From contig CAXTYC010000063.1 of assembly GCA_964248365.1 (NCBI GenBank), forward strand, positions 1 through 13,230: DNA of 13,230 bases. Reading direction: 5' to 3'. The DNA comes from an uncultured Chroococcidiopsis sp. Lineage in GTDB: Bacteria; Cyanobacteriota; Cyanobacteriia; Cyanobacteriales; Chroococcidiopsidaceae. Within the stretch, counting starts at the first letter, position 1, and each line of letters starts with the position of its first letter. The position numbers and the translations under genes were made by a program. The notes below the pieces were generated by a model. The model saw only the letters and a list, made by a program, of their open reading frames with translations, was not told the origin of the DNA and made no database searches. This document shows, in pieces, positions 1,124 through 13,230 of this stretch.

Positions 1124-1990
1124 TTAAGAAGAAACTTTCAAACTGTAACGCTGGCACAAACTTTTAAATTTTTCGATCATGAGCAATCGCACATTTTCAG
1201 GCGCTACGATTACACAATCAGGTGCATATTGCATTACTTCCCTGATAAACCAAAATGTAATAGATACCCGCCTGACAACTCGCCGCACCCGCTGTGTATC
1301 TGGTAGCCATTCATTTAGCTTGTCTTCTGGTTTAGCTTGATAAGCAAAGGCTAAACCAGCAAACAGATGCATTTCTACATCTATCTCTGCCAAACTAGAA
1401 CGCCACTGGCCAGCAACAGGTAAAATGGCAGCATCTTGTATCCTGTCTAAACGCAAACTCCAATTATGCCTTAATTGTTCGACATCCAAGTTGCCATCTG
1501 TCTCTTCACACCAGCAATCAAGATATTGACGGTTTTCGTGTGGTGTAACCTTGGCATGGCGAACAGTAAAATCCCATACTCGATGTGCTGCATCTTGATA
1601 GCTGAGTTGAAAGGGTTGCTGGCGTAAGATGTAACGGTCTATTTCCAAACGCCAGTGGCGGGATAAGTTTCCTAAGAAACTTTCGATTTCACCTCGCAGA
1701 GGTATTAGTAGTTCGCTACGTTCAAGTAGTAATCGTGCGATTGTTTGTGCCTGCTCGTTTTGCCCAATGTCGCTAAACAAATGCATTGCACGGTAAAGCG
1801 CACGGATACGCGATTCTGACCAGTCATGATTTTTCCCAATAATTAAATGATGCTGGGCGATTGCTTCTATGAGCTTGGAGATATTCGGGCGATCGCCCCA
1901 CATCAGATTAAACTCCTGGGCTAGGTTTTCTAATTCAGCTTTGTCACGCTCGTGTAGAGACAAAGTTATCGATTGACCTTTTCGACTCAT
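1124..1990 (-). CDS. CRISPR-associated WYL-domain transcriptional regulator (N-terminal RHH-like, WYL, C-terminal WCX-like)
   Basis: 288 aa. The N-terminus SITLSL..DKAELENLA..NISKLIEAIA is ribbon-helix-helix-like. The WYL core reads F.LSYQDA...YLDCWCEE...SLRLDRI and the C-terminus reads WFIREVMQY...IVAPENVR. It is divergent from cas3, as is typical of cyanobacterial I-D loci. Confidence 0.88.
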   Translation of the reverse strand: MSRKGQSITLSLHERDKAELENLAQEFNLMWGDRPNISKLIEAIAQHHLIIGKNHDWSESRIRALYRAMHLFSDIGQNEQAQTIARLLLERSELLIPLRGEIESFLGNLSRHWRLEIDRYILRQQPFQLSYQDAAHRVWDFTVRHAKVTPHENRQYLDCWCEETDGNLDVEQLRHNWSLRLDRIQDAAILPVAGQWRSSLAEIDVEMHLFAGLAFAYQAKPEDKLNEWLPDTQRVRRVVRRVSITFWFIREVMQYAPDCVIVAPENVRLLMIEKFKSLCQRYSLKVSS

Positions 1991-2086: not shown

Positions 2087-4267
2087 ATGTCCAACAATTA
2101 CACAATAACTCTCAAACCTGTCTATTCAGAAACAGTGCCAACACCAGAGGGCTTGAAAATGCCTAATGGGTGGTCATTGTCTTGGCATCAAGTTGAAACT
2201 TTAAAAGCGCTGCGAGATCCAAATATTGATGTAGTATTCAACGCTGGCATGACTGGCGATGGTAAAAGCTTGGCAGCTTATTTACAAGTGCTTCTAGGTG
2301 AATTATCCGCTATTGCGCTTTACCCGACAAACGAACTAGCCCGTGACCAAGAAATACAGATTAAAGGATATATTGAAGAATTCCAACCTAAAGAGAAACC
2401 TCGTGTAGCGCGACTTAGTGGCGCTGATTTAGAAATTTATGCAGAAAATGAAGGATTGAAAAAAGGTGCAGCGATCGCAACTCTCACTAACCAAAGAGAA
2501 GCATTGTTAACTAACCCTGATATTTTCCATTACTTACATTACGGTGCTTATATTATTCATGGTGATAGTCCAGATAAATTATGGGGAAGAATAGATAAAG
2601 ACTTTAACTTATTTATTTTCGATGAATTTCATGTTTTTGCGGCTCCCCAAATTGCCAGCATTATTAATACAATGCTGTTAATACGCTGCACAAACCGTCA
2701 TAAGAAGTTCTTATTTCTTTCAGCAACGCCAGATAAACATTTAATTAGCCGATTGCAAGAAGCTGGGTTTCGGTGTCAAGAAATCAATCCAATTGAGCAA
2801 AAAAAATATCAATTTCCTGAGACATTAGAAAAAGAACAGGAACTACAAGCGCAGAAATGGAGGCAAGTAGCGCGAGCAATTTCGCTGAATTTTATTCCTT
2901 TGTCACCTGATTTTAAAGCTTCTGAAACTTGGTTAAGAGAAAATAGTAATTTTATTTTGGCTCAGTTTAAGCAGTATCCAGGTAGTAAAGGTGCAATTAT
3001 TCTTAACTCAATTGCAGCAGTCAAACGCCTGACTCCATTTTTTCAAGAAATTTTACAGCCATATGGCTTGACCGTAGGAGAAAATACAGGACTATCTGGA
3101 AAAGGTGAAAAAGAACGCAGTCTTGCTGCTGATTTAGTCCTTGGCACGAGTACCATTGATGTTGGAGTTGACTTTAAAATTAATTTTCTGATTTTTGAAT
3201 CGTCAGATGCAGGGAATTTTATCCAAAGATTAGGACGTTTAGGAAGGCATGGTGGATATGAAAAGAATGGTCAAAAAATCAAGTTTGAGAACTTTACTGC
3301 TTTTGCACTGGTTCCTAACTTTTTAGTAGAGCGTTTATTTCAGCTAGAGCTTCCACCGTTAAAAGTTAATAGTATTTGCGATCGCCCCACTCTCCAACAC
3401 ATCATTAGAGAGCAATATCGCCAAATCAATGACTTTCATGGCTACTATCGCCGTTGGGGTGCTGTCCAATCATTTTGGCTGTATTACAAGTTAGGCGATC
3501 GCACAATTAAACAACAGTATGCCCAAAGCCGTGAGAAGTTTCAAGAAGCCTGTGAGCAAGTATTTGAAACAACTTTGAAGTCTGCGGCTGGACGTATTCA
3601 AGGATGGGCAAATGAGTGGAGACAGATATCTGGTAAAAAGGAGGGTAACCCAATTGCTGAGGATGCTGCTAGTTTTCGAGGCTTTAGCCCCTTGCAATGT
3701 GGTTTGTACGATTTAATGGCACAAAATGAGGCAGAGAGGTTTAAAACCTACGATCTACCAGGAATTTTAAGCAATTTAGAAATTGGAATGTGGACAGAAG
3801 CAGCGTTTATGCGAACTTTGAAAGAAACCGCCCAACGCACCGGACAACCAATTGCCAAAGGTAGATTTGCTCACTGTCTCGCATTTATGAAGTTGCGTTC
3901 CTACCGTGAGGAGCGGCTGAACTGGAAGTTTACCTACTCTAGCGACTTGCAGCCAATAGCTGATGCTTGGAAAGTTCAGGTTTTAACTGGTGTAGGAATT
4001 TGGCAACCAGACAATCAATGGATTGGTGCAATTAACAAAGAGTTGAAAAAGGAAGGTTTAGTTAGCTACCTGATACGCCGTCCAGTCGCAGAAGTGCGGA
4101 TGCGGCTACGGCTACCGATGCACTTTCAGATTTACCCAATTAGCGATCGGTATAGCTTTCATGATGCTACTGCACCGTATGCGATCGCTTTCGGTCACTC
4201 TGCGCTGCTACTGGATACCCTTGCCTATACGTTCAAAAGCAAAGGAGATGAGATATGGGTTGCTTGA
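2087..4267 (+). CDS. cas3: Type I-D CRISPR-associated helicase Cas3' (no HD domain)
   Basis: SF2 motifs: HQ (Q motif), TGDGKS, FDEFH, LSAT, TIDVGVD, QRLGRLGRH. No N-terminal HD domain. The start is placed at ATG 2087 (MSNNYTITL) because the tracked 1973 start overlaps the WYL gene. Confidence 0.93.
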   Translation: MSNNYTITLKPVYSETVPTPEGLKMPNGWSLSWHQVETLKALRDPNIDVVFNAGMTGDGKSLAAYLQVLLGELSAIALYPTNELARDQEIQIKGYIEEFQPKEKPRVARLSGADLEIYAENEGLKKGAAIATLTNQREALLTNPDIFHYLHYGAYIIHGDSPDKLWGRIDKDFNLFIFDEFHVFAAPQIASIINTMLLIRCTNRHKKFLFLSATPDKHLISRLQEAGFRCQEINPIEQKKYQFPETLEKEQELQAQKWRQVARAISLNFIPLSPDFKASETWLRENSNFILAQFKQYPGSKGAIILNSIAAVKRLTPFFQEILQPYGLTVGENTGLSGKGEKERSLAADLVLGTSTIDVGVDFKINFLIFESSDAGNFIQRLGRLGRHGGYEKNGQKIKFENFTAFALVPNFLVERLFQLELPPLKVNSICDRPTLQHIIREQYRQINDFHGYYRRWGAVQSFWLYYKLGDRTIKQQYAQSREKFQEACEQVFETTLKSAAGRIQGWANEWRQISGKKEGNPIAEDAASFRGFSPLQCGLYDLMAQNEAERFKTYDLPGILSNLEIGMWTEAAFMRTLKETAQRTGQPIAKGRFAHCLAFMKLRSYREERLNWKFTYSSDLQPIADAWKVQVLTGVGIWQPDNQWIGAINKELKKEGLVSYLIRRPVAEVRMRLRLPMHFQIYPISDRYSFHDATAPYAIAFGHSALLLDTLAYTFKSKGDEIWVA

Positions 4268-4268
4268 G

Positions 4269-4380
4269 GTTTCGATCCCTAATAGGGATTTTGGTTACTG
4301 ATTTACAGTAAGAGGGCGTAAGCCTTCAAGTACAGCGAAGGAAATTTCAATCCCTGATAGGGGTTCAAGTCTGCCTGATG
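4269..4380 (-). CRISPR. Degenerate mini-array (repeat-spacer-repeat) encoding a putative crRNA-like regulatory RNA
   Basis: Minus strand: R1 4380-4344 CATCAGGCAGACTTGAACCCCTATCAGGGATTGAAAT; 38-nt spacer 4343-4306 TTCCTTCGCTGTACTTGAAGGCTTACGCCCTCTTACTG; R2 4305-4269 TAAATCAGTAACCAAAATCCCTATTAGGGATCGAAAC. Both repeats keep the CCCT-N3-AGGG hairpin and an ATTGAAAC-like 3' end of cyanobacterial I-D repeats. The period is 75 nt. Confidence 0.85.
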
Positions 4381-4401
4381 TTTTATTGCCCTCCACTCTC
4401 A

Positions 4402-4407
4402 ATCATA
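4402..4407 (-). promoter_or_regulatory. Candidate -10 box (TATGAT) for the mini-array transcript
   Basis: TATGAT on the minus strand ~21 nt upstream of R1. No clear -35 box. Confidence 0.35.
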
Positions 4408-4455
4408 TAGGAGAAATTCACAAGATTTTTATGTAGTCTTTAATAACTGAATTTA

Positions 4456-4483
4456 TTGTCATAAAAATTTCGTATGCTATTCT
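4456..4483 (+). promoter_or_regulatory. Sigma70-type promoter for the leader/small-ORF transcript
   Basis: TTGTCA (4456-4461), 16 nt, then TATTCT (4478-4483) with an extended -10 TG at 4475-4476. Predicted TSS ~4490. Confidence 0.6.
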
Positions 4484-4492
4484 TTACTTGTT

Positions 4493-4521
4493 GGCATCAG
4501 CCTGCAAGGACAGAGAAGGAA
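4493..4521. promoter_or_regulatory. Target site of the mini-array spacer
   Basis: GGCATCAGCCTGCAAGGACAGAGAAGGAA versus 4315-4343 GGCGTAAGCCTTCAAGTACAGCGAAGGAA: 24/29 identical. Confidence 0.8.
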
Positions 4522-4541
4522 ATTCGTTGTACCGATGCTTG

Positions 4542-4611
4542 CATCCGTCCGACGCTACGCTTCTTACTGTAGTTGAACTGATACTCTCATCCGTCCAACG
4601 CAACGCTTCTT
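4542..4611 (+). repeat. Two 24-nt direct repeats separated by 22 nt
   Basis: CATCCGTCCGACGCTACGCTTCTT (4542-4565) and CATCCGTCCAACGCAACGCTTCTT (4588-4611), 22/24 identical. Confidence 0.85.
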
Positions 4612-4724
4612 TATGAAGCAAACATAAGTTCAAAATTTACAAGGAGGTTCCAAGATAATAAAAGATCTTTTGATTCCAATTTCTTAAGACACGATTCCTA
4701 AAACTTAAGTGGAGGTTCTAACTG

Positions 4725-4916
4725 ATGAACAATTATGTTCAGTTGGAACTCTTTGACCTGCGATCTTACACCTCAGAACAATCGTCTGTAACTGAGGAAG
4801 TAACTGAATTGGTCGAAGAGATTCAGCAATTAAGCAACTATAAGCAACTTGAACTTGATCTCTTTCGACAGCAGTTTTATAAAACTCCTTCCGAGTTATT
4901 TATATTAGCTGCATAA
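4725..4916 (+). CDS. 63-aa acidic peptide with duplicated NY.QLEL motif; putative beta-clamp-binding toxin
   Basis: SD GGAGG at 4711-4715, 9 nt before the ATG. Internal repeat NYVQLELFDL / NYKQLELDLF and C-terminal LAA. A hairpin follows the stop codon. The function is inferred. Confidence 0.7.
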   Translation: MNNYVQLELFDLRSYTSEQSSVTEEVTELVEEIQQLSNYKQLELDLFRQQFYKTPSELFILAA

Positions 4917-4989: not shown

Positions 4990-5233
4990 ATGGACGAACA
5001 AAAAATTTTGGAAAGAATCACTGTCAATCCTCAAATTTTTGGCGGTAAACCTATTATTCGAGGTCGTCGGCTAGCGGTTGAACATATTTTAGGGATGCTT
5101 GCAGCAGGAGATACTATCGAAACCTTGCTAGAAGCTTATCCCTGGTTAGAACGGGAAGATGTTGCAAGCCTGTTTAGTTTATGCGCGGAGGTTAGTTGGT
5201 CATGAGCGAATTGAACCATTATTGATAGAGTAA
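4990..5233 (+). pseudogene. DUF433-family antitoxin, frameshifted
   Basis: RITVNPQIFGGKPIIRGRRLAVEHILGMLAAGDTIETLLEAYPWLEREDV is a DUF433 signature. One extra base near 5163-5164 shifts the frame. The shifted frame continues QACLVYARRLVGHERIEPLLIE* to TAA at 5231-5233. Confidence 0.8.
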
Positions 5234-5238
5234 GCAAT

Positions 5239-5599
5239 GTGAAAATACTGCTAGATACTTGTGTCTGGTTTGGAGTGCGTACCAATTTACTTGCTGCTGG
5301 CTATGACGTAGTTTGGAGTGGAGATTGGTCAGAAGATTCAGGCGATGAGGAGATTTTAGCAACTGCTTACCGTGAAGGTCGAATTTTAGTAACGCGAAGA
5401 TATTGGCTTTGGAGAGTTAGCGATTGTACGGGGAAATCCTCATTGTGGTATTTTGCGGCTAGTTAATCTCAGTACTAAAGAGCAATCAATTGTTTGTGTG
5501 CGGGTGCTTCAGCTGTACGGTGATGAATTAGCGTCGGGTGCGATTGTAACTGCGGAATTAAGCAGAGTGAGAATTAGACCACCAGAGAATGATGGCTAG
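5239..5599 (+). pseudogene. DUF5615 PIN-like toxin, frameshifted
   Basis: MKILLDTCV...DEEILATAYREGRILVT, then the expected T.DKDFG motif is disrupted at ~5395-5405. Another frame continues FGELAIVRGNPHCGILRLVNL...GAIVTAELSRVRIRPPENDG* to TAG at 5597-5599. Confidence 0.8.
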
Positions 5600-5622: not shown

Positions 5623-5766
5623 ACCAATGGTGCGAGAAATTGACGGGCTTTAGTTTCTCTAGATTTTTCATTACTAACGCGCAAAACGGCAACCAATAGT
5701 TGCAGAAATTGACTGTAATCAATTATACAGGTTGAAAAACTGCCGCCATTGGTGGCAGAAATTGCT
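5623..5766. repeat. Three degenerate 22-bp direct repeats upstream of cas10d
   Basis: ACCAATGGTGCGAGAAATTGAC (5623-5644), ACCAATAGTTGCAGAAATTGAC (5692-5713), GCCATTGGTGGCAGAAATTGCT (5745-5766). Confidence 0.75.
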
Positions 5767-5802: not shown

Positions 5803-8800
5803 ATGGCTAATGGTGAAGATTGGTTATCAGGTGATTTTGGATTTGATGGTGATTCTTCACACCGCACTATTGAAACCAAAGGCGAATTATTAACACTCAA
5901 GCTATTACGTGAAGCTATTCAGGCTCAAAATCCAGATGACAAAGTAATGGCGGATTTTGCTGAGTATGTTTTACCAAATCTGTTGCAAATAGCTATTGGT
6001 GTCACTGCCAAAGGTGGTAAGTTTTTTGATGAAATCGATCAACAGCGAGAAGCCGAAGGTAAAACTAAAGTTAGGCGAGATAATGCTGCTGACCAATCAC
6101 TGAATACTCACTTACTGAATGGCTTATTTCCAGCTAATTTAATTGAGAGACGTTTAGAAAAACTCGATACTACCGTGCGGCGAGTGGTGAAAGAACGAGA
6201 ACGTCGATTAGTAATTGCTGGGTTTATTTTACATGATTTTGAAAAATTTCCTGATATACCAGAAAATTGCCGCAATTTATCGTTAGCAGAACATCGTCAA
6301 ATTATTGATGAAAAAGTTCGCCAGTTAGGACTTGATAGCTTTATCAATCCAGATAATCCAGAGGCTTATCGAGAGTATTTAGATGATTTGTTGTGCATGG
6401 TTTATAATGCACAACGACGCTGGGATACTAACTGGAATTTTTCTGAGTTTGGCTTGAATCCTGTTCTCAAAGACCGCACTCTTCGTAGTCTGTCTGATTT
6501 AACCTGTTTAGCTGATTCTCTCGCTTCAATTGTTAAACATCCCCAAGATGCAGAACATCCCAGACTACAAGAAATTATTCATAATCTTAGTGATGGACAA
6601 TTGAAATTTACCTATCACAGCATTGCTGAGAACCGAGGTGTTTTAACCAATGTTGTGAATAATGCTGTAATTCAAGCTTATACTAGCCTCAATACTGATG
6701 AGCATACATACTATGAACCTTTACTATATCTGCCAATAGGTGTAATTTACCTGGCTGCGCGTAATGCTCCTCCTATCTCATCAGAAGATTTACCAGACCT
6801 TGTAGTTAACAATATTAAATCACTTTGTGCTGACCAACTACGCCTAAGACAGACAGGATTTGGTCGAGATGGTAAAGGCATGAAATATGCCGAATATTAC
6901 AACTTATTTTTTGACTCTTTAGGCTTAATGCAAGTGGCTTTAGATGCGACGTTACGCATTTTAAGTTCTAGTAAACCATCTGTTGCCAAAAGTCGCAGTG
7001 AAAATTTAGCCAAGTTCCAACAACAAGGAGTTTTACCTGCTGAATTTGATTTTAATTTTGCTGATGATATCCGCATTGACCAAATAGCAGAATTTGGTGA
7101 TTTAGTAAGTCGCAAGATTTGGGATGAAACAGTTAATCGTATTGAAGCAGTTCGCAAAAAAGATAAAAAAATCCCAAAAATACCTGCTCTTGATTTAACT
7201 CATAAGGTAGTTGAATTCTGGAATTTAACAAAATATATCCCTCAAATTCACCACATTCAGCGCATTAATGAATGCTTGAAAGAAAACAAGTTAAAAGGCA
7301 ATACTGGCGGAGTCCCTTACGAATGGTATTATCTGGCAGCTAAGTATCTTGAAGAACATCCAGGCATTGAAGATGTACGGGAAACTTGCTTGCAAGTTAT
7401 TGACTACTTGACAAGATTAATTTCTCCAATACTTGCTCAATATAAATTACCTGATGGTTGGGACGATTTAAGGCAATGGGTATCACGAGTTTTCATGTTA
7501 CCAACCGCAAATCAACAGCCATCACCTAAAACTCAAACTGAGAATTTTCTCAAGGAGTTAAATAATTACAATGCTGCTAAAAAAGCTGGACGGGGACGAC
7601 AATTAATCTGTTCAATTTCTCATTCTGCTTACACAGTAACTGAGCAGATGGAATCAGCAGTTTTGTTTACACCGCAAGTTTATACCAACAAACAAATGCT
7701 GGGTGGTTCTAATGCCAAGCGCAATATTTCCAGTATTGCAAGTGTAGAAATGATGCTCAGACAAATTTTAATGAATCAAACTCAAGCAGTCGGTAAACGA
7801 TTTGAAGATGGTAAATATCGTTATCTCTACTTTTATCCCACTTATTACTTTACTCCAGAAACTAACAAGTTTTTACAAAAAGCTTACAGTGGAATTGCTC
7901 AGACTCGGTTTGATACGAGTGTCCGCAATCATTTTATCACTAAGGATTTACAAGCTCATTTAGCAAAGAAAGACTATCAAAGCGTCGATAGTTTTTTGAT
8001 TGATGAAAACTTAGAAAACGAGAAAGACCGTACATTTAAGCTTTCTTATCCTGAAGACCAACCTTTAACATTCTACTTCATGGCGCTACCACCAGGACGA
8101 GAAAGCACTGATACGGAATCTTGGGTAATGCCTAGTTGGCTGGCGTTTGCTTTTCCAATGATTTTAGATGTTAAAACTGTAGTTTCCGAGTCCCCAATTC
8201 CACCTTTTAATGATGGTGCTGAATTTGAAGAAAGCGTCTTTCTTGATAGTGCGCCTCATGCTTTCCGTGCTTTGGTAAGACGCGATCGCTTCCGGCTTGA
8301 CTACATCCTTAAAGGTTGGAATGAAAACGGTACTCAATACCCAGCACCCTTAAATGTCTTAACTGCTGCTTATGCGATTCATTTAGATGTGAATGCGCGA
8401 CAAGGTAAGTCTGGTTATGATGCCAACTGGGGAAGATTTACTGAACTGGCAAAAGATTTTGAAACTAGTCCGCTATACGTCTTTTCTTATCTCAATCGTT
8501 GGGTTCGTAACCAGGGAGTAGAAACGGCACGAATCGAGAAAATTCGGCTTTATACGTATCATTTTTATCCTTGTTTTGACCCTTATGTGAAATATGACAC
8601 TGCTATGGAGCAATTAATTGTGGAAGAAAAATCAAGTCTAAATCACCCTAAGAAGTTAACAGATTTGTACCGAAAATTTTATAGAGCTAATAAGCGTTAT
8701 AATCCCAAATCTAATGCTGTTTTGAAACCAATTGATATTGCGGCTGAAACTATACTCAAAGCTGACTTAAGTGTCTTTCATGGTGAAACATTAGTTGTGG

Positions 8801-9093
8801 TTGTTGCAGCAGAAGTTTTTAAGCTAATGGATCGCGTTCATTCTTCTACTGCTGAAGGACGCTGGGTAATAAGTAAAAGGGAGGAAGAACGCCTAGCTGT
8901 TCTAGATTTTGCACAGTATTTTGTAGTGGAGGTATTTGAGAAGTCTTTTGCAGGCGATCGCGCTCGTTTAGCAGGTCGTCAACTAAACTTAATTCGAGAT
9001 ACCTGCGAGTTTCTTTATCGTTTAGAAGACGACAAAGAAAACTCAGCTAGAAATGAACAATCTACCGAATCTACTGATGATGACAATCAGTAA
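5803..9093 (+). CDS. cas10d: Type I-D large subunit Cas10d/Csc3 with N-terminal HD nuclease domain
   Basis: 1096 aa. DQSLNTHLLNG...LHDFEK...LADSLAS HD motifs. SD GGAGG at 5792-5796. Lies directly upstream of csc2/csc1. Confidence 0.93.
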   Translation: MANGEDWLSGDFGFDGDSSHRTIETKGELLTLKLLREAIQAQNPDDKVMADFAEYVLPNLLQIAIGVTAKGGKFFDEIDQQREAEGKTKVRRDNAADQSLNTHLLNGLFPANLIERRLEKLDTTVRRVVKERERRLVIAGFILHDFEKFPDIPENCRNLSLAEHRQIIDEKVRQLGLDSFINPDNPEAYREYLDDLLCMVYNAQRRWDTNWNFSEFGLNPVLKDRTLRSLSDLTCLADSLASIVKHPQDAEHPRLQEIIHNLSDGQLKFTYHSIAENRGVLTNVVNNAVIQAYTSLNTDEHTYYEPLLYLPIGVIYLAARNAPPISSEDLPDLVVNNIKSLCADQLRLRQTGFGRDGKGMKYAEYYNLFFDSLGLMQVALDATLRILSSSKPSVAKSRSENLAKFQQQGVLPAEFDFNFADDIRIDQIAEFGDLVSRKIWDETVNRIEAVRKKDKKIPKIPALDLTHKVVEFWNLTKYIPQIHHIQRINECLKENKLKGNTGGVPYEWYYLAAKYLEEHPGIEDVRETCLQVIDYLTRLISPILAQYKLPDGWDDLRQWVSRVFMLPTANQQPSPKTQTENFLKELNNYNAAKKAGRGRQLICSISHSAYTVTEQMESAVLFTPQVYTNKQMLGGSNAKRNISSIASVEMMLRQILMNQTQAVGKRFEDGKYRYLYFYPTYYFTPETNKFLQKAYSGIAQTRFDTSVRNHFITKDLQAHLAKKDYQSVDSFLIDENLENEKDRTFKLSYPEDQPLTFYFMALPPGRESTDTESWVMPSWLAFAFPMILDVKTVVSESPIPPFNDGAEFEESVFLDSAPHAFRALVRRDRFRLDYILKGWNENGTQYPAPLNVLTAAYAIHLDVNARQGKSGYDANWGRFTELAKDFETSPLYVFSYLNRWVRNQGVETARIEKIRLYTYHFYPCFDPYVKYDTAMEQLIVEEKSSLNHPKKLTDLYRKFYRANKRYNPKSNAVLKPIDIAAETILKADLSVFHGETLVVVVAAEVFKLMDRVHSSTAEGRWVISKREEERLAVLDFAQYFVVEVFEKSFAGDRARLAGRQLNLIRDTCEFLYRLEDDKENSARNEQSTESTDDDNQ
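8620..9093 (+). CDS. cas11d: Probable Cas11d small subunit translated from an internal start in cas10d
   Basis: In-frame GTG at 8620 preceded by GGAG (8607-8610) and an AT-rich spacer, giving 157 aa. The context GGAGCAATTAATTGTG resembles the cas7d RBS GGAGATTAATTATG. ATG 8605 is an alternative start. Internal Cas11d translation is established for I-D systems. Confidence 0.65.
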   Translation: MEEKSSLNHPKKLTDLYRKFYRANKRYNPKSNAVLKPIDIAAETILKADLSVFHGETLVVVVAAEVFKLMDRVHSSTAEGRWVISKREEERLAVLDFAQYFVVEVFEKSFAGDRARLAGRQLNLIRDTCEFLYRLEDDKENSARNEQSTESTDDDNQ

Positions 9094-9141: not shown

Positions 9142-10152
9142 ATGGCAATTCTAAAAACTGTTGAAGCCAAGTTATTTCAATCTGAAATTCCCTACAAACC
9201 AATGGGTAAATATGCTCATCTATTGACTGTCCGTATTACCGAATCTTATCCTCTATTTCAGACAGACGGAGAACTGAATAAAGCGCGCGTAAGAGCCGGA
9301 GTTAAAGAAAAAACTACAATCAGTCGTTTGTCAATGTTCAAGCGCAAGCAGTCTACTCCAGAGCGGTTAGTCGGTCGGGAATTACTACGTAACTATGGCT
9401 TAATGACTGCTGAGGAATGCGAATATAACGTGAATTTTGCGATGGATAATCCTGATTGCATTATTTACGGCTTTGCTATAGGTGATTCTGGTTCTGAAAA
9501 GTCCAAGGTTGTAGTAGATACCGCATTTTCAATTACAGCTTTTGATGAATCACACGAAACCTTTACTCTCAATGCTCCTTATGAAAATGGCACAATGGCT
9601 TCTAAAGGAGAAAATGGTTCTAAGCCAGGTGAAGTTACCAGTCGAATTAACCAGCAAGACCATGTTAGACCGCAAGTTTTCTTTCCTAGTATTGTCACGC
9701 TTAAAGATCCCACTGAAGCTAGTTTTCTTTACGTTTTTAATAACATATTACGAACTCGTCACTATGGAGCGCAAACAACCCGTACAGGTCGGGTTAGGAA
9801 TGATTTAATTGGTGTTGTATTTGCTGACGGAGAAATTACTAGTAATCTGCGTTGGACTCAAGCAATATATGACCAAATGAAGTCTAACAATACTTTAAAT
9901 CTACCTGAACCTCTAGATGAAGATGATGTAATTACTGCTGCTAAAAGTGCAATTGAGGCGTTGATGGCTGATGAGTTTATCGTTCACACTGACTTCATTG
10001 GTGATGCTTTTGTACCCCTGCTAAATGAAGTTAAGACTCTCACAGCTAGCGAAGCAGGAATGAAGTCAATTTTGCAAAAGGCTGATGCCGAAGCTAAAGA
10101 ATATGCTAAAAAACACATCAGCAAGAAGAAAACTGCTAAGGCAGGGTCATAG
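9142..10152 (+). CDS. csc2: Type I-D backbone subunit Cas7d/Csc2
   Basis: 336 aa. FKRKQSTPERLVGRELLR, CPDC-like NPDCIIYGFA and YGAQTTRTG motifs. SD GGAG. Position after cas10d. Confidence 0.92.
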   Translation: MAILKTVEAKLFQSEIPYKPMGKYAHLLTVRITESYPLFQTDGELNKARVRAGVKEKTTISRLSMFKRKQSTPERLVGRELLRNYGLMTAEECEYNVNFAMDNPDCIIYGFAIGDSGSEKSKVVVDTAFSITAFDESHETFTLNAPYENGTMASKGENGSKPGEVTSRINQQDHVRPQVFFPSIVTLKDPTEASFLYVFNNILRTRHYGAQTTRTGRVRNDLIGVVFADGEITSNLRWTQAIYDQMKSNNTLNLPEPLDEDDVITAAKSAIEALMADEFIVHTDFIGDAFVPLLNEVKTLTASEAGMKSILQKADAEAKEYAKKHISKKKTAKAGS

Positions 10153-10154
10153 CT

Positions 10155-10874
10155 ATGCCAAAAATTTACTGCTGTGAATTAGAACTCCATGACAGCTTGT
10201 ATTACGCTACTCGTGAAATTGGACGGCTCTATGAGACAGAACCAGTAATTCACAATTACGCCCTCAGCTATGCACTGGGGCTTGTTGATAGTGAAGTTTA
10301 CTCTACCACCGTTGCTGAAGAACATTCCTATCGTTACTTTTGCCCTGAGCAAGTTCCTAAATATGAGGAGCATTTGACACCCCTTAATCAACAAGGAATT
10401 TATGTCACTCCGGCTCGCGCAGTTAGTCATACTGCAATTCTCAATACATGGAAGTATGCGAATAACAACTACCATGTGGAGATGGAGAAAACGCAAAAAA
10501 ATATTCCAAGTTTTGGTAGGGCAAAAGAGATTGCACCGGAAAGTCAATTTGAGTTTTATGTAATCTCTCAGAAACAACTGAAATTACCAAAATGGATTCG
10601 CTTAGGTAAATGGATGAGTAAAGCTGAACTCAAGATTCAAGAAGTTACCAAAGTTGAATTAAAAACAGGTGACTTCGCTTTGCCTTATCCACTTAACCCC
10701 TTAGATGTCATGTTTACCCATCACGTTGTTAGCTACGATGTAGTAAATATGCCGCCAGTGAGCCTGATTCAAAATGTCAGTATTCACCAAGGGCAGTATT
10801 ACGAATTCTACAATCCTAACAAAACTGAAAAATTGCGCTTACCTGCAACAATGCAGTATCGATTTAAAGCTTAA
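10155..10874 (+). CDS. csc1: Type I-D Cas5d/Csc1
   Basis: 239 aa. LHDSLYYATRE, IHNYALSYALG and LPKWIRLGKWMSKA motifs. Position after csc2. Confidence 0.92.
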   Translation: MPKIYCCELELHDSLYYATREIGRLYETEPVIHNYALSYALGLVDSEVYSTTVAEEHSYRYFCPEQVPKYEEHLTPLNQQGIYVTPARAVSHTAILNTWKYANNNYHVEMEKTQKNIPSFGRAKEIAPESQFEFYVISQKQLKLPKWIRLGKWMSKAELKIQEVTKVELKTGDFALPYPLNPLDVMFTHHVVSYDVVNMPPVSLIQNVSIHQGQYYEFYNPNKTEKLRLPATMQYRFKA

Positions 10875-10882
10875 ATCTAAGC

Positions 10883-10904
10883 GGGTGGGCATTGCCCACC
10901 CTAC
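10883..10904. repeat. REP-like palindrome between csc1 and cas6
   Basis: GGGTGGGCA-T-TGCCCACCC (10883-10901). The minus strand reads GTAGGGTGGGCAATGCCCACCC, i.e. it begins with GTAG. Confidence 0.7.
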
Positions 10905-10925
10905 ATTCACTATTTTGAATTACTA

Positions 10926-11786
10926 ATGCCTCACAGCCTTGTCCTTAACCTTGTTCCTCAGTCTCCCATCTATCCCGAATTTTTAACTGGTAGACACTAT
11001 CACGCCTTCTTCCTCACTCTTATCAGTTGGGTCGATCAAACCTTGGGAAACTACTTGCACTCGCCTAACGCAGATAAAGCCTTCACACTCTCACCCTTGC
11101 AAATACAACGAGAACACAAACAACATCACTACACCTTGCAATTTTGTCATCAAAAACCCATCCCAGCAGGTACTCCATGCTGGTGGCGTATTTCCCTACT
11201 CGATGACACTTTATTTAGCAAATTAACCCCGCTGTGGCTAAATCTCAACCCTAATCACCCTTGGCATCTAGGTTCCGCAGACTTGCACATTACTAGCATT
11301 CTTGGCACTCCCCAATCAACGCAACCTTGGGCAAATGCTTGCACCTACGCACAACTGTACGAGCAAGCAAGCGATCGCAATCGCACTGTTAAATTCATCT
11401 TTGCTACGCCTATATCCTTTCGTCAAGGTAAATATGATACTATTCTTCCCGTCGAAGAATGCGTCTTCAGAAGCCTTTTAGGCCGTTGGAATAAATATAG
11501 TGGGGTTGAATTTACCAACTTGTCATTCGATTCAATTTATCCAAGTTTTGTCAAGATTCATACGGAAGCTATCAGCAACTATGACAGCAAATTTATTGGT
11601 AGCGTTGGTGAAATTAGCTATCGCATTCTTGGTGATGTTGAACCGATAGCAATTAAGCAAATTAATGCCTTAGCTGATTTTGCTTTATTTACAGGAGTAG
11701 GACGTAAAACAACGATGGGTATGGGGATGACGCGCCGCCTATCAAATGCTAATTCGCGTTTTTCAAATGCTCAAAGCCATGAATGA
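10926..11786 (+). CDS. cas6: CRISPR endoribonuclease Cas6
   Basis: GRHYHA near the N-terminus, FTLSPL, F.TP.SF and the C-terminal G-rich loop GVGRKTTMGMG. Confidence 0.94.
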   Translation: MPHSLVLNLVPQSPIYPEFLTGRHYHAFFLTLISWVDQTLGNYLHSPNADKAFTLSPLQIQREHKQHHYTLQFCHQKPIPAGTPCWWRISLLDDTLFSKLTPLWLNLNPNHPWHLGSADLHITSILGTPQSTQPWANACTYAQLYEQASDRNRTVKFIFATPISFRQGKYDTILPVEECVFRSLLGRWNKYSGVEFTNLSFDSIYPSFVKIHTEAISNYDSKFIGSVGEISYRILGDVEPIAIKQINALADFALFTGVGRKTTMGMGMTRRLSNANSRFSNAQSHE

Positions 11787-12375
11787 TACTACTGATTACA
11801 TACCTATTGCTGCATTAAACCAATATGCCTACTGTCCACACCGCTGCTGGCGAATGTTTTGTGCAGGAGAATTTATTGACAACCAATACACAATTGAAGG
11901 TACAAGCTTACACGATCGCGTTCATACAGTGGGAGAAGGACAGCGGGAAGAGATTTGGCAAATTCGGGCGATCTGGCTGAAATCAGAAAAATACCAACTT
12001 ATCGGTAAAGCTGATTTAATTGAAGCAGAAAACGGTGAGTGGTATCCCGTTGAATACAAGCGAGGACGTAAAGGCGAATGGGATAACGATGAACTGCAAG
12101 TCTGCGCTCAAGCTTTGTGTTTAGAGGAAATGACTGGGCAGCATATCAGTAGTGGCTATATCTATTACGCACACTCCCACCAGCGCCTGTTAGTGGAAAT
12201 TACGGGTGAACTGCGTCAAAGTGCGATCGCTACTATCAAAGCTGTTCAAACATTACTACTTACAGGAGTAATGCCAAAAGCTATCAAAACAAAACGGTGT
12301 GATGGATGCAGTTTGTTTTCACGATGTCTACCTGGTGCTGTGGATAAGGTTAAACGTTATCAAGAAGCAAAATGA
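11779..12375 (+). CDS. cas4: Cas4 RecB-like nuclease
   Basis: YCPHR, GKAD, PVEYKRG, Q...QALCLEE and CDGCSLFSRC (four Fe-S cysteines). Likely start is ATG 11779, overlapping the cas6 stop. Confidence 0.94.
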   Translation: MNDTTDYIPIAALNQYAYCPHRCWRMFCAGEFIDNQYTIEGTSLHDRVHTVGEGQREEIWQIRAIWLKSEKYQLIGKADLIEAENGEWYPVEYKRGRKGEWDNDELQVCAQALCLEEMTGQHISSGYIYYAHSHQRLLVEITGELRQSAIATIKAVQTLLLTGVMPKAIKTKRCDGCSLFSRCLPGAVDKVKRYQEAK

Positions 12376-12417
12376 TTTTGGTTAAATTAATTTAATTGAT
12401 AGGATTTAGATGGATTT

Positions 12418-13230
12418 ATGGGTACAGTTTATATCACACAAACCGATGCTTTTATTGGTAAAACAGATGAACGTCTCCATGTTCGATTTGAAAAAAAGAC
12501 AATTTTAGAAGTACCGCTGATTAAAGTAGACGGCATTGTGGTTTTAGGACGTGCTACTGTTTCACCTGCTACAATCTCTGAACTACTTGAACGGCATATT
12601 CCCCTTACTTTTCTTACAGAAACTGGTCGCTACTTAGGAAGGTTAGAACCAGAAGTTACCAAAAACATTTTTGTCCGTAAGGCACAATGGCTGGCAGCGG
12701 GCGAGTCAGCCAGGGCAATTCATGTAGTACAAGGGTTTGTGCGCGGTAAGCTGAAAAACTACCGAAACTTTCTTATCCGTCGTCAACGTGAATGCCCTGG
12801 TTTAGATTTATCCACAAATGTTACACGCTTAGAGCAAGCGATTGCACCTATTGATACAACTTACAGTATTAACTCATTGCGCGGTTTGGAAGGCGCTGGT
12901 AGTGCTGCTTATTTTGGCTGCTTCAATCAAGTGATTCGGGCGAAAGAATTTACTTTCACCAGTCGCATCCGCCGTCCACCAACTGACCCAGTTAATTCTT
13001 TACTCAGCTTTGGCTATTCGTTACTCCGCCATGACGTTCAAGGCGCAATCAACATTGCTGGGTTTGACCCGTATTTAGGGTACTTGCACTGCGAACGTTA
13101 TGGTAGACCATCACTGGCGTTGGATTTAATGGAAGAGTTCCGCCCCTTGGTAGTGGATGCAGTAGTGTTATCTGCATTGAATAAGCGATTTTTAGCACCC
13201 ACAGATTTTGTCACAGAACCATTAAGCGGT
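12418..13230 (+). CDS. cas1: Type I-D Cas1 (3'-truncated by the window; absent from the ORF track)
   Basis: My translation gives MGTVYITQTDAFIGKTDERLHV...VPLIKVDGIVVLG...LRGLEGAGSAAYF...RRPPTDPVNSLLSFGY...GFDPYLGYLH...RPSLALDLMEEFRP. The frame is open to the window end. Confidence 0.96.
   Translation, partial: MGTVYITQTDAFIGKTDERLHVRFEKKTILEVPLIKVDGIVVLGRATVSPATISELLERHIPLTFLTETGRYLGRLEPEVTKNIFVRKAQWLAAGESARAIHVVQGFVRGKLKNYRNFLIRRQRECPGLDLSTNVTRLEQAIAPIDTTYSINSLRGLEGAGSAAYFGCFNQVIRAKEFTFTSRIRRPPTDPVNSLLSFGYSLLRHDVQGAINIAGFDPYLGYLHCERYGRPSLALDLMEEFRPLVVDAVVLSALNKRFLAPTDFVTEPLSG

Follow-up and report, generated by a model that had tools for sequence, protein, structure and literature searches.

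Short PAM-flanked and long PAM-less target sites of type I-D mini-array guides, and a cyanobacterial locus that appears to retain only the long one

Guides encoded by mini-arrays in type I-D CRISPR loci appear to address two kinds of site in their neighbourhood. Among 85 such guides, a PAM-blind scan resolved short matches flanked by GTC or GTT (class 1) and long matches that have no PAM (class 2). The site in the window, as we call the whole analysed contig of 13,230 nt, is assigned by its sequence features to class 2, and class 2 as a whole most likely represents a single-stranded target, RNA, held by Cascade. That Cascade would bind a single-stranded RNA target here, whether for repression or as a decoy, we consider probable; that the guide-Cascade complex binds the leader RNA of a small ORF in the window and represses it is a narrower proposal, in which we place slightly better than even confidence. 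If it holds, crRNA-like regulators act post-transcriptionally as well as on promoters.

Organization of the locus

The window carries a type I-D locus in which an insert of 1.5 kb separates cas3' from cas10d. Divergent from the cas3' helicase gene (2087..4267, plus strand; TIGR03158, E=4.6e-133) lies a WYL/WCX-type regulator (1124..1990, minus strand; Pfam WCX, E=1.4e-5). A 258-aa ORF cut at its 5' end (2-778) had no match in Pfam or NCBIfam. The mini-array starts 1 nt past the cas3' stop and comprises two repeat-like units flanking a 37-nt spacer (4269-4380, minus strand), the layout expected where a I-D locus has such an array between its cas3' and cas10d. On the plus strand, a 63-aa orphan ORF (4725..4916), the candidate regulated product, is followed by toxin-antitoxin-like cargo of DUF433 and DUF5615 type (4990..5599), with DUF5615 broken across two frames (5239-5466 and 5453-5599), and then by cas10d (5803..9093) and cas7d, cas5d, cas6, cas4 and cas1 (9142..13230), the last interrupted by the contig end.

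The guide and its polarity

Read on the minus strand, the array begins with a proximal (5') repeat (4344..4380) that ends with the 8-nt handle ATTGAAAT (4351-4344), continues with the 37-nt guide spacer (4307..4343), of which positions 1-29 would pair with the target, and closes with a distal (3') repeat (4269..4306). The latter forms a 6-bp hairpin and, on this strand, scored 29.5 bits against Rfam CRISPR-DR5, under the gathering score of 40 bits. A candidate -10 box for the guide transcript, TATGAT (4402..4407, minus strand), is a consensus match only; a -10-like hexamer occurs at most 110 nt from the repeat in 17 of 21 loci of guide family A. The final handle base, at 4344, is T and not C (across the 85 guides C 42, T 33 and A 10); main-array repeats have C as their final base.

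On sequence grounds the guide is assigned to the minus strand. The main arrays of relatives, situated behind cas2, have repeats ending in ATTGAAAC in the cas direction, and under the minus-strand reading GTC or GTT immediately precedes perfect seeds in many of these relatives. A sequence-only reading of this DNA had pointed out that GTT at 4490-4492 would suit a plus-strand guide. That polarity was considered and rejected, as only 1 of its 8 first positions would match; moreover GTT would occupy guide positions 6-8 instead of preceding position 1, and therefore cannot be its PAM, and the triplet is found in just 5 of 62 homologous sites. In one RNA run of a soil metatranscriptome (share 0.16), a single unstranded contig extended over 4136-4413, leaving the target uncovered. 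One mini-array, that of L020, has three repeats and two spacers, one an intact guide of family A, the other truncated and family-B-like; a target was sought for the latter and none was found.

Two classes of site among related loci

The survey comprised 109 related loci and the window; after exclusion of 7 loci without a cas3' end, 13 without a second repeat, 5 duplicates and 1 that failed the position filter, 84 of the 110 yielded the 85 guides. Targets were sought without regard to PAM or position, on both strands and within 800 nt of the repeat, with 1700 shuffled guides as control. Both classes were found in 52 loci, class 2 alone in 10, class 1 alone in 9 and neither in 14. Closer inspection disclosed a class-1 site in two of the ten class-2-only loci, and a class-2 site in L041; cassettes with an RNA-type site only then number 8 loci, in 3 guide lineages, the window included. 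Outside the 85-guide set, L149 and L150 have both site classes, and L147 has a truncated ORF and no adjoining mini-array. The guides of families A and B are alike and their loci are kin, so that these counts do not represent independent origins. Cassette types are nonetheless scattered over a Cas3' tree (a quick version with 63 rows), implying that they are exchanged as modules. Six loci with a DNA-type site only (L006, L053, L064, L066, L072 and L076) have different first ORFs, coiled-coil-like where tested, which ties the RNA-type site to particular cassette types. In L007 the family-A leader continues into a shortened family-B element and the small ORF is replaced, which suggests recombination between cassette types.

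Class-1 sites have the attributes expected of a DNA target. A best 17-nt match of at least 12 was found for 75 of 85 guides (258 of 1700 shuffles), 61 of these being flanked by GTC or GTT; positions 1-3 are matched in all 58 distinct GT pairs, and matching declines beyond position 16. Counted directly on either strand, a GT-PAM seed site accompanies 70 of 85 guides as against 4 of 1700 shuffles. At least two such sites accompany 31 of the 85; here the divergent promoter region contains 2-3 sites, in tandem or in inverted orientation, some 80-330 nt from the repeat. The PAM derived from class 1, GTY, agrees with the I-D PAM of GTN/GTH given in the available text of PMC10212523.

The sequence-only reading overlooked this DNA-type class, which is dead in the window's genome. 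The window has a GTC PAM (4436-4438) with a relic protospacer (4436..4455, plus strand), in which 2 of 5 seed positions match; 14 of 21 family-A loci still have an intact copy of this site, and four Nostoc loci of the window lineage share a 7-nt deletion at it. Nor did a scan of the window's genome reveal any GT-PAM site whose 5-nt seed is perfect and whose matches reach 12 of 14.

An alternative that had been offered, that the window's site reflects a relaxed PAM, can be set aside: the PAM appears, from sequence, not to be relaxed, since relatives' guides use canonical GTC or GTT at a separate promoter site and the PAM residues of Cas10d are kept. K358 of the window's Cas10d aligns to K326 of the Synechocystis protein, and the G-G-V-x-Y glycine loop is preserved; K326 and this loop are the PAM lysine and glycine loop described in the accessible portion of PMC9123187. 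The suggestion that the PAM be derived from the main array proved unworkable. The only long array, C47 (L001, G000 C47 29575-32766), has 44 repeats and 43 spacers and no adjoining cas genes, its leader end lying ~60 nt from the contig end. Its spacers gave two matches at E=1 in phages, neither usable, matches to 18 plasmid records that were repeat matches or at E=0.3, again none usable, and only 15-17-nt matches in their own genome and the fetched loci; the PAM was derived from the regulatory sites instead. C47 is only possibly the main array of the window locus, since cas2 and the cas1 end were not found in the assembly.

Evidence for a single-stranded target

Class-2 sites follow other rules. 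A best 30-nt match of 20 or more was obtained for 63 of 85 guides and for 5 of 1700 shuffles. A threshold of 19 gives 66 matches, of which 62 run antisense to the cas-sense transcript, all without a GT flank; the remaining 4 lie on the opposite strand, are flanked by GTC or GTT, and are class-1 sites. PAM-type sites are found on both strands, long sites on one. Among 49 distinct pairs, the match rate falls to 0.37, 0.31, 0.22, 0.18 and 0.12 at positions 6, 12, 18, 24 and 30, and positions 1-3 match in 49, 47 and 41%; other positions mostly exceed 0.8, apart from 7, 8 and 21. The perfect seed of the window, to which the sequence-only reading drew attention, is therefore not a family feature and is incidental. 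Mismatches are denser at every-sixth positions in all 16 cluster representatives (50 of 64 cells; 0 of 100000 permutations), and this periodicity persists although unit lengths, from repeat to repeat, range over 62-109 nt. Guide and target also covary: at paired positions targets match their own guides better than other guides of the same family (21.41 vs 17.43 in A; 20.10 vs 17.61 in B), and at sixth positions there is no excess (0.76 vs 1.01 and 1.47 vs 1.42, respectively). G-U-type (wobble) mismatches number 51 vs 20 of C-A type, in cells that are not independent.

Cascade of type I-D leaves every sixth base unpaired. The same is stated for I-F1 Cascade in section 22 of 10.1101/2023.03.03.530964. 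The marks of a single-stranded target bound by Cascade, namely unpaired sixth positions, freedom from a PAM and confinement to one strand, are thus observed at the family level. Two protein-free explanations, an antisense RNA acting by itself and a relic of spacer duplication without any pairing, can appeal to a predicted duplex of -33.3 kcal/mol and to the direct repeat that spacer and site form. We regard them as exceedingly improbable: counting from the handle, mismatches concentrate at each sixth position despite the variable unit length, and these positions lack covariation, a pattern to be expected neither of a free duplex nor of shared descent. Periodicity combined with covariation at paired positions only excludes mere duplication as well as a protein-free duplex. 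Type III-like pairing between handle and anti-tag was also considered and rejected. The target flank shares 2-3 of 8 bases with the handle in 49 of 62 sites, so that the identity of the window's AAT flank with the handle end, which the sequence-only reading had pointed out, is incidental.

The identity of the ligand is addressed by position. In 16 of 21 family-A loci an extended -10 element (TGnTAnnnT), present in 18 of the 21, ends exactly 9 nt before the target, so that the site would span about +4 to +32 of the transcript predicted from this element. This position and the G-U-tolerant stem that encloses the family-B site (described below) favour RNA over ssDNA as the ligand. Binding to DNA, either to exposed non-template ssDNA or to dsDNA under a relaxed PAM, with Cascade as a roadblock behind the start site, is in our estimation distinctly improbable. 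I-D Cascade does bind ssDNA too, according to the available text of PMC10212523, and the ssDNA version would explain strand bias and periodicity equally well; in the window itself positions 1-7 are perfect and the site starts ~3 nt past the predicted start. Against dsDNA stand the canonical GTY at the sister site, the conserved equivalent of K326, mismatches at positions 1-3 in about half of the pairs, and the contrast of PAM-type sites on both strands with long sites on one; against ssDNA stands the location of the family-B sites, which are hundreds of nt further downstream and enclosed in a G-U-tolerant RNA stem. The preferred ligand, RNA, is compatible with in vitro findings for Synechocystis I-D Cascade, which, in the accessible portion of PMC9123187, bound ssRNA at ~11 nM irrespective of flank vs 35 nM for GTT-dsDNA. 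The same source calls the choice of I-D Cascade among ssRNA, ssDNA and dsDNA an open question, and in PMC10212523, as far as its available text extends, in-vivo I-D interference is demonstrated solely on dsDNA. The literature that we covered, which did not extend to subscription papers and bioRxiv supplements, held no report of RNA targets or PAM-less RNA-type sites for I-D mini-array guides.

The match in the window

The window's target (4493..4521, plus strand) is met by the guide, on the minus strand from 4343 to 4307 against 4521 to 4493, with mismatches at positions 8, 13, 18, 24 and 26 and then from 30 onward. These mismatches, the AAT flank (4524-4522) and the GTT at 4490-4492 were all confirmed as the sequence-only reading had given them. 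It had also singled out 18 and 24 as every-sixth positions, which stands, and 30 is mismatched too; positions 6 and 12, however, are paired, and 8, 13 and 26, three of the five mismatches, do not fall on a sixth. At non-sixth positions the target matches 22 of 25, and apart from the spacer itself it is the best site on both strands of the 5.58-Mb genome, the next reaching 19. With AAT as the flank of this target and 2 of 5 seed matches at the GTC site, the window contains no target with a canonical PAM and an intact seed; a partial target near a downstream promoter is present. From these sequences, the class-2 match appears to be kept in the window at the family level (mean 21.4).

Might the cassette nevertheless be decaying, with an inherited RNA-type site and a guide no longer made, processed or effective? 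Its proximal repeat hairpin is reduced to 4 bp through one substitution, compared with at least 7 bp in 61 of 85 guides, the DNA site is dead, DUF5615 is split, and the mismatches at 13 and 26 are absent from most family-A members. We think decay quite unlikely all the same, given the 22 of 25 paired positions, the intactness of both -10 boxes, the Shine-Dalgarno sequence and the ORF, and the stems of at most 4 bp in 18 of 85 guides, counted as for the window's hairpin. Position 1 is matched through different bases in the window and L038, and position 5 is altered on both the guide and the target sides in the window lineage.

Leader, small ORF and the effect of binding

Upstream of the target, a promoter-like TTGTCA-16-TATTCT (4456..4483, plus strand) with an extended TG (4475-4483) predicts a start near 4489-4491 and a 5' leader of 4490..4724, whose Shine-Dalgarno sequence GGAGG (4711-4715) is predicted to be mostly paired. 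The fold of this leader is unexceptional (z-score only -1.12). In the window lineage it is ~100 nt longer than in most family-A loci, and a second Shine-Dalgarno-like sequence, GGAGGTTC at 4642-4650, precedes the real one (4711-4717) and has no start codon behind it.

The 63-aa ORF was found in 8 of 201 genomes, one copy each. Two conserved Q-L-x-L-F-like motifs (QLELF and QLELDLF) stand out, and Q6, L9, D11, Q41, E43, L44 and L46 are invariant in 22 sequences. Searches gave no family above cut-off, no viral relative and an atlas match of 0.75 only. The product may possibly be a toxin that binds the sliding clamp, judged from motifs that resemble, and only resemble, the clamp-binding consensus QL(S/D)LF reported for the toxin SocB in the available text of PMC9690074.

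How Cascade at the leader might act was approached by folding. In family A one leader segment has two possible pairing partners, the 5' end and the Shine-Dalgarno region, and a switch exposing or hiding the latter was considered. It was rejected: on holding the site unpaired, the predicted value for the Shine-Dalgarno sequence dropped in 2 of 14 leaders, or in 3 of 12 with one rise, and did not change in the window (0.20 vs 0.20). A hand-drawn helix between the 5' end and the anti-Shine-Dalgarno segment of family A had 0 compensated pairs and is absent from the window's fold, and RNAalifold returned no long-range family-A helix.

Family B presents a different arrangement. Its site lies ~470-700 nt from the repeat, 3' of a small ORF, and sits inside a closing stem of 10 bp. 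Across 21 sequences this stem is 99% paired, 3 of its pairs show compensation, and G-U variants are tolerated on the plus strand. In these cassettes (L036:12750-12905 and 20 similar loci) the stem closes an RNA domain of ~130 nt, 5' of which an ORF of 65 aa has weak winged-helix matches only; Rfam holds no family for this domain or for the window's target element. The guide-bound part of many copies has the sequence TTG-CGG-NNN-TAA after a purine-rich run, which recalls the CreT mini-ORF, with an unconserved start codon. A terminator switch was likewise rejected, stem probability being 0.95 free vs 0.96 bound (21 sequences) and the tails mostly not U-rich.

The step from binding to effect is hence the weak link of the mechanism, and with both switch models unsupported a decoy remains a serious rival, albeit an unlikely one. 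By this account the transcript would pull guide-Cascade off the promoter site, producing positive feedback or a bistable switch and no RNA silencing. Strand, periodicity and covariation data fit it too; a block of translation is hard to picture for a family-B site, which lies 3' to the ORF within a closed RNA domain; and the tighter in vitro binding of ssRNA than of dsDNA (PMC9123187, in the portion cited above) would assist it. On the other hand, the 8 RNA-type-only loci, the window among them, have no GT-PAM site to relieve, nor is there a strong one elsewhere in the window's genome, and the changes at positions 1 and 5 noted above do not favour it.

Under the favoured proposal, repression through the leader, minus-strand transcription of the mini-array would yield, after processing, a crRNA-like guide that bears an 8-nt handle and is taken up by I-D Cascade. 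In the clade one guide would have two targets on the neighbouring cassette: a short match (1 to ~16) with a GTY PAM over the promoter, leading to DNA binding and repression, probably without cleavage, and a long PAM-less match (to position 29) inside the transcript, bound as single-stranded RNA. This split would let the guide act twice and leave the chromosome uncut. The window would have lost the DNA site and retained the RNA site at the leader 5' end of the 63-aa ORF, where bound Cascade would most likely lower expression because the leader is blocked, refolded or destabilised; the ORF would be released once Cascade is lost or inhibited. The earlier suggestion of silencing at the mRNA 5' end thus fares well in its RNA branch, upheld by strand bias, periodicity, dispensability of seed and PAM, covariation and the extended -10, and its silencing part is kept here as a conjecture. 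Tentatively, and as a reading less likely than not, we envisage dual-substrate guides in which one crRNA-like RNA directs Cascade to promoter DNA (short match, with PAM) and to the resulting RNA (long match, without PAM), the window being an RNA-only derivative in which Cascade might serve as a post-transcriptional antitoxin against a two-motif clamp-binding peptide until it is lost or blocked. From such a pattern one could read nature's own rules for knocking down RNA with a type I complex, and RNA binding so far known in vitro only would gain a natural use. The dozens of natural guide/target pairs are ready substrates with exact predictions, and the window's RNA-only cassette, with no DNA site to confound, is a clean test case.

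Relation to known systems

In type I toxin-antitoxin leaders a short ORF follows a structured leader, the Shine-Dalgarno sequence is paired, and the 5' end is met by an antisense RNA. The window is predicted to be alike in each of these respects; it differs in that the antisense is a crRNA-like guide with Cascade periodicity.

With the I-D mini-arrays and cargo of Shmakov et al. 2023 (10.1101/2023.03.03.530964), as described in their main text, the window shares a position after cas3', two repeats, antisense transcription (predicted here), a swappable cargo rich in toxin-antitoxin genes and a partial target upstream of it. That text predicts PAM-flanked promoter-DNA targets, with a PAM at all manually examined targets, and mentions neither an additional long site lacking a PAM nor a target in RNA, whereas the window has the PAM-less site only; the I-D targets in their Supplementary file 6 may include some. 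Having the mini-array layout and lacking the PAM-flanked target, the window is a variant and not a plain member of this group.

CreTA and CreR (Liu et al. 2023, 10.1101/2023.03.10.532045; PMC12948488) likewise place a degenerate mini-CRISPR guide beside a candidate target gene. In the accessible parts of these sources, the neighbouring gene or the cas promoter is repressed via Cascade without cleavage and released on Cascade loss. Their repression is transcriptional, on PAM-flanked DNA, and needs the seed, whereas the window's site is PAM-less, lies in the transcript and belongs to a class that tolerates seed mismatches; the regulated product of CreTA is a tRNA-sequestering RNA, and the window's candidate is a protein ORF. 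Repression of a toxin gene through PAM-flanked promoter DNA, which defines CreTA, is not to be expected in the window, where there is no live PAM site.

The ssRNA binding of Synechocystis I-D Cascade (Schwartz et al. 2022, PMC9123187) is the nearest biochemical precedent, being PAM-independent and sequence-specific, with the PAM-recognition domain disengaged; the window's Cas10d has kept the PAM residues. That work, in the portion available, is in vitro, concerns a matching target only, and gives no natural RNA target or regulatory role.

One further feature of the insert is a GC-rich inverted repeat at 5744-5759, immediately 5' of cas10d. A similar stem stands behind the family-B element in L060, and the repeat is possibly a processing or stabilising hairpin.
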